The notes below the pieces were generated by a model. That model saw only the letters and a list, made by a program, of their open reading frames with translations. It had not been told where the DNA came from and did no database searches. The translations under genes and the position numbers were made by a program. 59,621 bases of DNA from a phage: the sequence record PZ049713.1. One strand, given 5' to 3'. Positions 9,949 through 10,598 of this stretch are shown here, one piece after another; the stretch's first letter is position 1; every line of letters begins with the position of its first letter.

Positions 9949-10598
9949 ACGACACACTGAAGGTAGCCGGGCGAATCGGCGCTGAGCTGGGGGCTGCGAA
10001 GGCGGAGAACGAAGCGATGCGCGGGTTGTTGCAGCAGGTGGTCGATTGCCAAGCCGAACACTACGGCGATGGCTGCGGCCTGCACCTTTCCATGATCACG
10101 CTGGCTGGACGGATTAAGGACGCCCTATCCCAGCAGGCCGAGTCGGAATGCCGCTGCACGATGCGAGAGCGCACGGTTGGCGATGGTTGCTCAGTGTGCA
10201 ATCCCGAGCTAGCGGCAGAGCTGGAGGGCGACGAGCCAGCCCCGGCGCAGGATGAGCGGGAGGCGGTGGAGCGGTTCAGCCCGATGACCAGCGTGCCGCA
10301 TTGCGGGCGCGCCTCTGAGGTTGAGGCGTATATGACCGATGATGACGACGGGGAGTATATGACCGTCGCCCAGCACGAACGCATCGCGGCGTCACTCACC
10401 CGCTCCGCGCAGACCGCCCCGCAAGGCAAGTTCCGCATGGGCGACCTCGTGAAGAAGTCCACCGGCAGCGAGTGGGAAGGCCATATCTGCGGCACCTACT
10501 CCACGGAACTGACACCAGAGGGCTACGCAGTCGAGAGCAGCGCCCATCGCAACAGCGTGCAGATTTACCCGGCTAAGGCATTGGAGGCAGTGGAATGA
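9945..10598 (+). CDS. Early protein with C-terminal type II (R67/DfrB-like) dihydrofolate reductase SH3 domain
   Basis: The C-terminal [52 protein letters not shown] closely resembles the R67 DHFR core ([16 protein letters not shown]). The N-terminal part has the Cys cluster [17 protein letters not shown]. Confidence 0.8.
   Translation: [217 protein letters not shown]

Follow-up and report, generated by a model that had tools for sequence, protein, structure and literature searches.

An early-operon protein with a C-terminal R67/DfrB-type dihydrofolate reductase domain in a PS-1-like temperate phage

The R67 dihydrofolate reductase (DHFR), or DfrB1 (1VIE, 2RK1), is a trimethoprim-resistant type II enzyme of 78 amino acids with an SH3-like fold and a disordered N-terminus of 20 residues, and its gene is carried on plasmids and in integron cassettes. 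Multi-domain homologues of 97-463 amino acids were characterized in 2023 and confer trimethoprim resistance, with DfrB-H3 as the exception (PMC9835603). In a further study from 2025, 386 homologues were collected and 148 were tested, fusions and viral proteins included, and 45 proteins of more than 160 amino acids and 20 viral homologues were analyzed (PMC12486381). Trimethoprim resistance was conferred by 114 of the 123 proteins predicted to form DfrB1-like tetramers, among them VQIY homologues with 38-55% identity as well as seven fusions, and oligomerization or ligand binding/reservoir functions were proposed as native roles of the fused DfrB domains. An integrase was found near only 1 of 139 contexts; nearby recombinases were named xerC, at a median distance of 2.0 kb from the tetramer-forming homologues, and recombination genes were enriched (PMC12486381). 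The present analysis concerns a gene at positions 9945-10598 of a phage DNA of 59,621 nucleotides (PZ049713.1; this whole stretch is called the window below), the product of which ends in a domain of this type. A preliminary description of the window regarded known DfrB enzymes as stand-alone proteins of about 78 amino acids, a statement outdated by the multi-domain homologues of 2023 and 2025. Phage-borne fused DfrB proteins are an already described class, and the window protein adds a member to it.

The C-terminus of the window protein had been proposed to be a type II DHFR domain from a comparison by eye, and a search with the Pfam profile DHFR_2 (PF06442) had been suggested as a check. This search was significant: residues 160-216 matched profile positions 21-77 of 78 with E=9.7e-21 and 73.8 bits, the gathering cutoff being 25. 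A phmmer search against all PDB chains matched only R67 DHFR entries (1vie, 2rk1, 3sfm, 6ny0 and 2p4t; E=3.8e-17, residues 161-216). By eye about 34 of 54 positions had been counted as identical to R67, and an ungapped comparison gave exactly this number (34 of 56 over a wider span). The TPEGYAVES block is conserved, as are the equivalents of K32 (K171), W38 (W177), Y46 (Y185), H62 (H201) and S65-V66-Q67-I68-Y69 (S204-Y208), and T184, in the place of W45, was the only differing residue among the R67 key positions checked. Residues K32, S65-Y69, Y46 and T51 line the pore of R67 and W38 and H62 lie at its dimer-dimer interface, assignments that come from established structural work on R67; every one of these residues is retained in the window protein. 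An AlphaFold2 (AF2) model built with 121 family sequences contained a five-stranded barrel at residues 161-217 (strands 168-171, 178-185, 193-198, 205-209 and 213-215) with a predicted local distance difference test (pLDDT) score of 84-91. When the domain was compared with the R67 structures 2gqv, 6nxz, 1vie and 2rk1 by Foldseek, template modelling (TM) scores of 0.86-0.89 and root mean square deviations of 1.5-1.6 Å were obtained. Profile search, sequence and predicted fold thus agree, far beyond chance, on a type II (R67/DfrB) DHFR SH3 domain, as had been proposed.

The domain is under purifying selection, with a ratio of nonsynonymous to synonymous substitution rates (dN/dS) of 0.28-0.30 at a median dS of 0.47 among 80 unique relatives. 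K171, S175, W177, Y185, T190 and S204-Y208 were invariant in 86 related loci, and H201 was kept in 84 of them. Several surface and interface positions varied across the same loci, and the equivalent of W45 was threonine or tryptophan in a ratio of 43:42. W45 of DfrB is known to be replaceable (PMC9835603).

In the window protein the SH3-like fold is preceded by 160 additional N-terminal residues, as in the multi-domain DfrB-H class. The open reading frame (ORF) of 217 amino acids is present in the sequence with the translation quoted in the preliminary description, as are the Cys cluster (residues 69-85) and the acidic stretch (residues 129-139) pointed out there. At both ends the gene shares bases with its neighbours through an ATGA overlap, its start ATG with the stop codon of the preceding ORF and its own stop with the ATG of the following one. 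The position in an early-left operon, also noted earlier, is supported, and the operon belongs to a temperate phage. The gene is best explained as a real accessory gene that is translationally coupled to the adjoining genes and belongs to the early-left operon (recombination to integrase) of a PS-1-like temperate Pseudomonas siphophage of about 51 kb; a probability of roughly 0.75 is given to this explanation taken jointly with the three-part product, the tetramer and the native role described below. A scan of the operon for promoters and terminators revealed neither a promoter-like site nor a convincing terminator within it, and nothing above the expectation from shuffled sequences.

Three further parts were distinguished N-terminal to the DfrB domain (Table 1). 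The N-terminal hairpin was modelled by AF2 as helices 2-38 and 43-62 at a pLDDT of 86-93, and L5, K6, G12-E21, L25, R26 and L29 were each at least 90% conserved among the 121 family sequences. The four-Cys module that follows (AF2 confidence below 50) may bind zinc. The linker contains a PAPAQDER junction motif, the acidic stretch (10329-10361) and, preceding the domain, an SAQTAPQ junction. The pLDDT was below 50 over residues 72-159, a region that may either be disordered or need zinc or partners for folding. The same linker module, without a DfrB domain, is present in the phages Epa5 and ZRG1 and in one further relative (P0058). None of the 121 family members gave a Pfam match within its N-terminal 160 residues, and in a search of PHROGs the window protein was matched in its DfrB part only (phrog_31682, unknown function). 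The fused homologues of the 2025 study are likewise single chains with other parts, a VQIY-type cluster I motif and a tyrosine recombinase at a distance of about 2 kb, but the fusion partner in the window protein differs from theirs in having no predicted enzymatic domain.

Compared with R67, the window protein has the same SH3-like fold in its C-terminal domain, with a length of 217 instead of 78 amino acids, and its 160 residues of hairpin and mosaic linker stand where R67 has a disordered N-terminus of 20 residues. Its gene lies in a prophage early operon together with genes for an HNH endonuclease, a NinI-like phosphatase and an integrase, and the protein is accordingly not one of the stand-alone integron-cassette enzymes of about 78 amino acids. 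R67-type reductase annotations occur in about 30 phage records in GenBank. Phages of Rhizobium, Sinorhizobium, Vibrio and Ochrobactrum, and Caudoviricetes MW202697, encode DHFR_2 domains 48-62% identical to the window domain; several of these are annotated as R67 dihydrofolate reductase, and many are short and stand-alone, one of 68 amino acids adjoining DNA polymerase genes. Published viral homologues lie near thyA (PMC12486381), whereas in the window phage the domain is fused and no thyA was found within about 20 kb or elsewhere.

The closest characterized relative is DfrB-H3, which was taken from a Pseudomonas phage, where its gene adjoins a DNA methyltransferase gene (Lemay-St-Denis et al. 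2023, PMC9835603). DfrB-H3 was identified as PS1_05 (BAR92343.1), a protein of 167 amino acids annotated 'dehydrofolate reductase' in phage PS-1 (AP014684.1), because the published primers encode QGKFRMG and RWRQWM followed by a stop, both of which match PS1_05. The PS1_05 gene is a positional homologue of the window gene, lying between recombination genes and the integrase in the same type of phage. The two DfrB domains are 82.5% identical and a 12-residue junction is shared, and both proteins have an N-terminal extension, but the N-terminal sequences are unrelated. A deletion of one nucleotide was found in PS1_05 right after YPAK (AP014684.1, 4150-4220), so that the deposited protein ends in RWRQWMTSADTRLTP; the last strand of the family consensus, ALEAVDD followed by the stop, can be read in the next frame. 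The window protein, unlike PS1_05, has an intact R67-like end. As the reverse primer of the tested segment encodes the RWRQWM end and its stop, the frameshifted end was the form assayed. The missing native last strand is a plausible reason for the failure of DfrB-H3, as far as can be read from the sequences. Among the proteins of the Pseudomonas prophage clade only DfrB-H3 has been assayed, apparently in a frameshifted form, and the published negative therefore says little about the activity of the clade. The window protein is the intact counterpart of DfrB-H3 and adds a well-conserved representative of this clade.

Relatives of the window protein were found in 527 protein clusters (90% identity level) at E<=1e-5; PF06442 was present in 119 and SVQIY in 118 of the best 120 clusters, and relatives are encoded on 174 IMG/VR contigs. 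Proteins encoded on independent contigs were 96% (P0001) and 89% (P0002) identical to the window protein over its full length. The relatives share a common plan: about 29 conserved leader residues, then a mosaic middle of 96-289 residues without a Pfam domain, and the C-terminal DfrB domain. The middle modules are linked by recurrent junction motifs, APIAQTAPQ among them. Clustering of the middle modules by cuts at the linker motifs was attempted, but collapsed to one connected component and was not used quantitatively. The four-Cys module of the window protein was present in 10 of 121 members, at varying positions and with all four Cys kept, and other members have other 4-Cys modules. When the N-terminal 66 residues were searched against 1.84 billion cluster representatives, 103 relatives were obtained, 23 with the DfrB motif and 80 with other C-termini; stand-alone proteins of 63-73 amino acids that consist of the hairpin exist as well. 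Judged from these sequences, DfrB is one interchangeable C-terminal module of the leader family. The leader and hairpin (9945-10142, residues 1-66; P0121-P0207), which carry the motif HYGDGxGLHLxMI, form a wider uncharacterized family. A tyrosine integrase gene lies within 5 kb at 67 of 80 IMG/VR loci, mostly downstream and on the same strand, and a gene for single-stranded DNA-binding protein (SSB) is found in the flanking DNA at 50 of 80 viral loci. The recurrent gene order in the relatives is cI, Rad52/YqaJ, SSB, DfrB fusion, Xis and Int. A literature search on R67 dihydrofolate reductase, prophage and Pseudomonas gave no paper describing this prophage family.

The conserved interface residues suggest that four copies of the domain would assemble into a D2-symmetric tetramer of the R67 type. 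Its single central pore would bind NADPH and dihydrofolate for a trimethoprim-insensitive hydride transfer, and the N-terminal parts may project outward, like the dispensable N-terminus of R67. A soluble construct would probably show DHFR activity, an expectation based on the published success rates of VQIY-type homologues at 38-55% identity. As to the native role in infection, an oligomerizing and nucleotide-binding module within a shuffled accessory early protein is more likely than a dedicated thymidylate-cycle enzyme, and no less likely than a metabolic function; dihydrofolate reduction would in that case be a probable but secondary activity. A folate- or nucleotide-related function had been among the suggestions of the preliminary description, but a folate or thymidylate function is unsupported, as thyA, thyX and folA were not found. 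For thyA and folA, no tblastn match of the E. coli ThyA or FolA sequence was better than E=0.02; the RHRxxS motif of thyX was absent from every frame; and none of the three genes gave a Pfam match among about 20 scanned ORFs. A dedicated thymidylate-cycle role was set aside because thyA was not found, and it is also less favoured because the leader is mostly joined to other C-termini.

Several points weigh against the explanation of the gene given above. The invariance of the pore residues is partly expected, since the domains within the family are about 85% identical. In E. coli, neither DfrB-H3 nor its 78-residue segment was expressed or conferred trimethoprim resistance (PMC9835603). The cutoff of the antimicrobial resistance (AMR) model for DfrB in NCBIfam (NF000331, trim_DfrB) is 137 bits, and the window protein falls below it, the entire sequence scoring 87.5 bits and its last 79 residues 90.8 bits. 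Nothing in a phage without detectable thyA, thyX or folA points to a metabolic requirement for a reductase, and only 23 of the 103 leader-sharing representatives contain DfrB, from which it follows that the N-terminal part does not depend on the DfrB domain. According to the strongest competing explanation the domain is not used as an enzyme; it would serve as a hub for tetramerization and NADPH/nucleotide binding that gathers four variable N-terminal effector modules, dihydrofolate reduction being incidental. The 80 leader representatives that end otherwise, the stand-alone hairpins, the mosaic middle region with its recurrent linker motifs and the absence of thyA, thyX and folA all fit this explanation, and oligomerization or a ligand reservoir has been suggested for fused DfrB domains (PMC12486381). 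Arguments against it are the pattern of conservation, in which the pore-lining residues are invariant over 86 loci while several surface and interface positions vary, including the equivalent of W45, and the finding that all published fusions were catalytically active (PMC12486381). The hub and the best explanation share the same structure and differ only in the activity under selection; the hub is considered a serious contender, with a chance somewhat short of even.

The other explanations are much less probable. Translation could start inside the gene and yield a short protein of DfrB size, since ATG 10332 (M130, 88 amino acids) is preceded five nucleotides upstream by GAGG and ATG 10359 (M139, 79 amino acids) three nucleotides upstream by GGGGAG; the 79-residue product gives the higher score on trim_DfrB, and the use of two start codons has a precedent in DfrB-H2/DfrB1 (PMC9835603). 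The two Met codons, however, lie in a module of only 5 of 121 members and are thus no family-wide feature, and the Shine-Dalgarno spacings are suboptimal for starts that are predicted from the sequence, which makes a short functional product improbable. The preliminary description had also considered the phage gene as a reservoir or ancestor of the resistance fold. A direct relation to the clinical integron-borne dfrB genes (DfrB1-DfrB21) is suggested by the common Pfam family, the common active-site motif and the mobile element, and yet it is very unlikely: identity between the domain and DfrB1 is only 63%, the trim_DfrB score of the protein lies below the cutoff, and chromosomes of Comamonadaceae (Burkholderiales) carry dfrB genes at 95-100% amino-acid identity to the named variants (PMC11662351). 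The gene would presumably also be silent in lysogens, in a repressed early operon. Finally, the ORF could be a non-functional accident, either a decaying fusion or a product of an assembly problem, as the contig holds a fold-back artefact in which a second copy of the gene is frameshifted. The copy analyzed here is intact between intact, overlapping ORFs, the independent contigs mentioned above encode full-length relatives, and the domain is intact at 86 loci with a dN/dS of about 0.3; an accident is therefore hardly credible.

The fold-back concerns positions 1-15083 of the window, which form one self-palindrome (98.2% identical, 146 gap positions) centred at about 7540. The arms are joined by a non-palindromic loop of about 110 nucleotides, flanked by a 10-nucleotide inverted repeat, GATCAGCAGC (7468-7477) and GCTGCTGATC (7590-7599). 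A direct repeat of 921 bp was found at the end of the window, 58684-59604 being 100% identical to 7468-8388 and only 97% identical to the left arm. This repeat indicates that the real unit is a genome of 51,216 bp (7468 to 58683) that is either terminally redundant or circular. ORFs in the right arm are intact and overlapping; in the left arm, frameshifts disrupt the DfrB fusion gene and the gene upstream of it. The arm 1-7467 is most likely a fold-back chimera from a long-read or amplified assembly, formed at the 10-nucleotide inverted repeat. The frameshifted second copy that had been reported is indeed present, and its domain DNA is identical to that of the right arm at 174 of 174 positions, but it lies within the mirror arm and is probably no independent gene. 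A true paralogue was rejected for this copy, as the whole 7.5 kb is mirrored with 45 mostly single-base indels and the terminal repeat favours the right arm.

Table 1. Coordinates of the DfrB fusion gene, its parts and other features in the window
Feature	Position	Strand	Remarks
DfrB fusion gene	9945..10598	+	217 aa; stop TGA at 10596-10598; complete (ORF list)
Shine-Dalgarno-like AAGGAG	9930..9935	+	9 nt 5' of ATG; read from sequence
N-terminal helical hairpin, aa 1-62, with family-wide leader (..LRGLL)	9945..10130	+	AF2, conservation
Four-Cys mini-module, aa 69-85	10149..10199	+	Putative zinc knuckle
Mosaic linker, aa 98-160, predicted disordered	10236..10424	+	pLDDT, junction motifs
DfrB/R67-type SH3-like domain, aa 161-217	10425..10595	+	Pore K171, S204-V-Q-I-Y208; interface W177, H201
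Fold-back left arm	1..7467	.	Reverse complement of ~7600-15083; 45 mostly 1-nt indels, 72 mismatches
Mirror-image frameshifted gene copy	4473..5124	-	Broken ORFs 4473-4922 and 4858-5124; inside palindrome
HNH endonuclease	8364-9011	+	Followed by several small ORFs, then DfrB fusion
222-aa ORF	10595-11263	+	Next downstream of DfrB fusion; ends in CxxC...CxxC tail (PEHVCSGCGAKGWTGNCLECIPY)
NinI-like phosphatase	11563-12279	+	Pfam/PHROG scan
Tyrosine integrase	12471..13652	+	Pfam Phage_integrase and Arm-DNA-bind_2; PHROG 1; 1.9 kb downstream; marks end of early-left operon
cI-type repressor (helix-turn-helix and Peptidase_S24)	48916-49590	+	Pfam
Rad52-like recombinase and Gp157 genes	57248..58470	+	Pfam; upstream in same operon after circle closure (58683 joins 7468)

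The unit is a lambda-like temperate siphophage, with the DnaB helicase and structural genes on the opposite strand. Its nearest phage genome was that of Pseudomonas phage PS-1, with 84-90% nucleotide identity over shared segments, and the host is probably Pseudomonas, as the nearest phages are all Pseudomonas phages. A scan of genome collections gave only four contigs from metagenome-assembled genomes, with an implausible bin taxonomy (Coriobacteriia, Pelagibacterium, Bdellovibrio and Flavobacterium) that was uninformative on the host. In some relatives (P0088, P0005, P0032 and others) the CxxC...CxxC tail of the 222-residue ORF, or its AAMAAKEA segment, is fused directly behind the DfrB domain, which implies that neighbouring early genes swap or merge their ends. 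Just past the integrase an ORF of 463 amino acids (14755-16146, +) gave a weak match to Wzy_C (O-antigen ligase/polymerase; E=0.002) and may be a serotype-conversion moron adjoining attP. ORFs with a DUF3800 (49620-50330, +) and a P63C domain (50952-52010, +) lie directly 3' of the cI-like repressor gene, a position typical for accessory or defence genes expressed during lysogeny.

With regard to resistance surveillance the window protein is of low concern, because it lies below the AMR-model cutoff, is not close to the clinical genes and is encoded in an early operon that is presumably repressed. Such repression would occur in lysogens, as in phage lambda, and lysogens would accordingly not be expected to be trimethoprim-resistant. 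The reported association of DfrB homologues with xerC and recombination genes may at least partly be a prophage signature, because the same layout was found here, with the integrase 1.9 kb downstream and an integrase at most of the IMG/VR loci. The prophage variants occur by the hundreds, always placed between recombination genes and the integrase, and their C-terminal modules alternate, DfrB being one of several; this picture may help to explain the association with recombination genes and tyrosine recombinases. The new points, the mosaic architecture at the family level and the frameshift in PS-1, are modest. A more far-reaching interpretation is put forward tentatively, and is rather less likely to hold than to fail: the DfrB domain could be one exchangeable terminal module of an extensive family of early proteins in Pseudomonas prophages, so far undescribed, whose members have a 30-residue leader in common and are built combinatorially from small modules (hairpin, 4-Cys knuckles and many singletons) connected by recurrent linker motifs, and in which the R67-type tetramer natively serves as an oligomerization and nucleotide-binding hub for phage effectors. 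If this were true, the association of tetramer-forming homologues with xerC and recombination genes would be a prophage signature, and the native context of the DfrB fold, sought for a long time, would have been found, together with a tractable experimental system based on an inducible phage and a non-essential gene.

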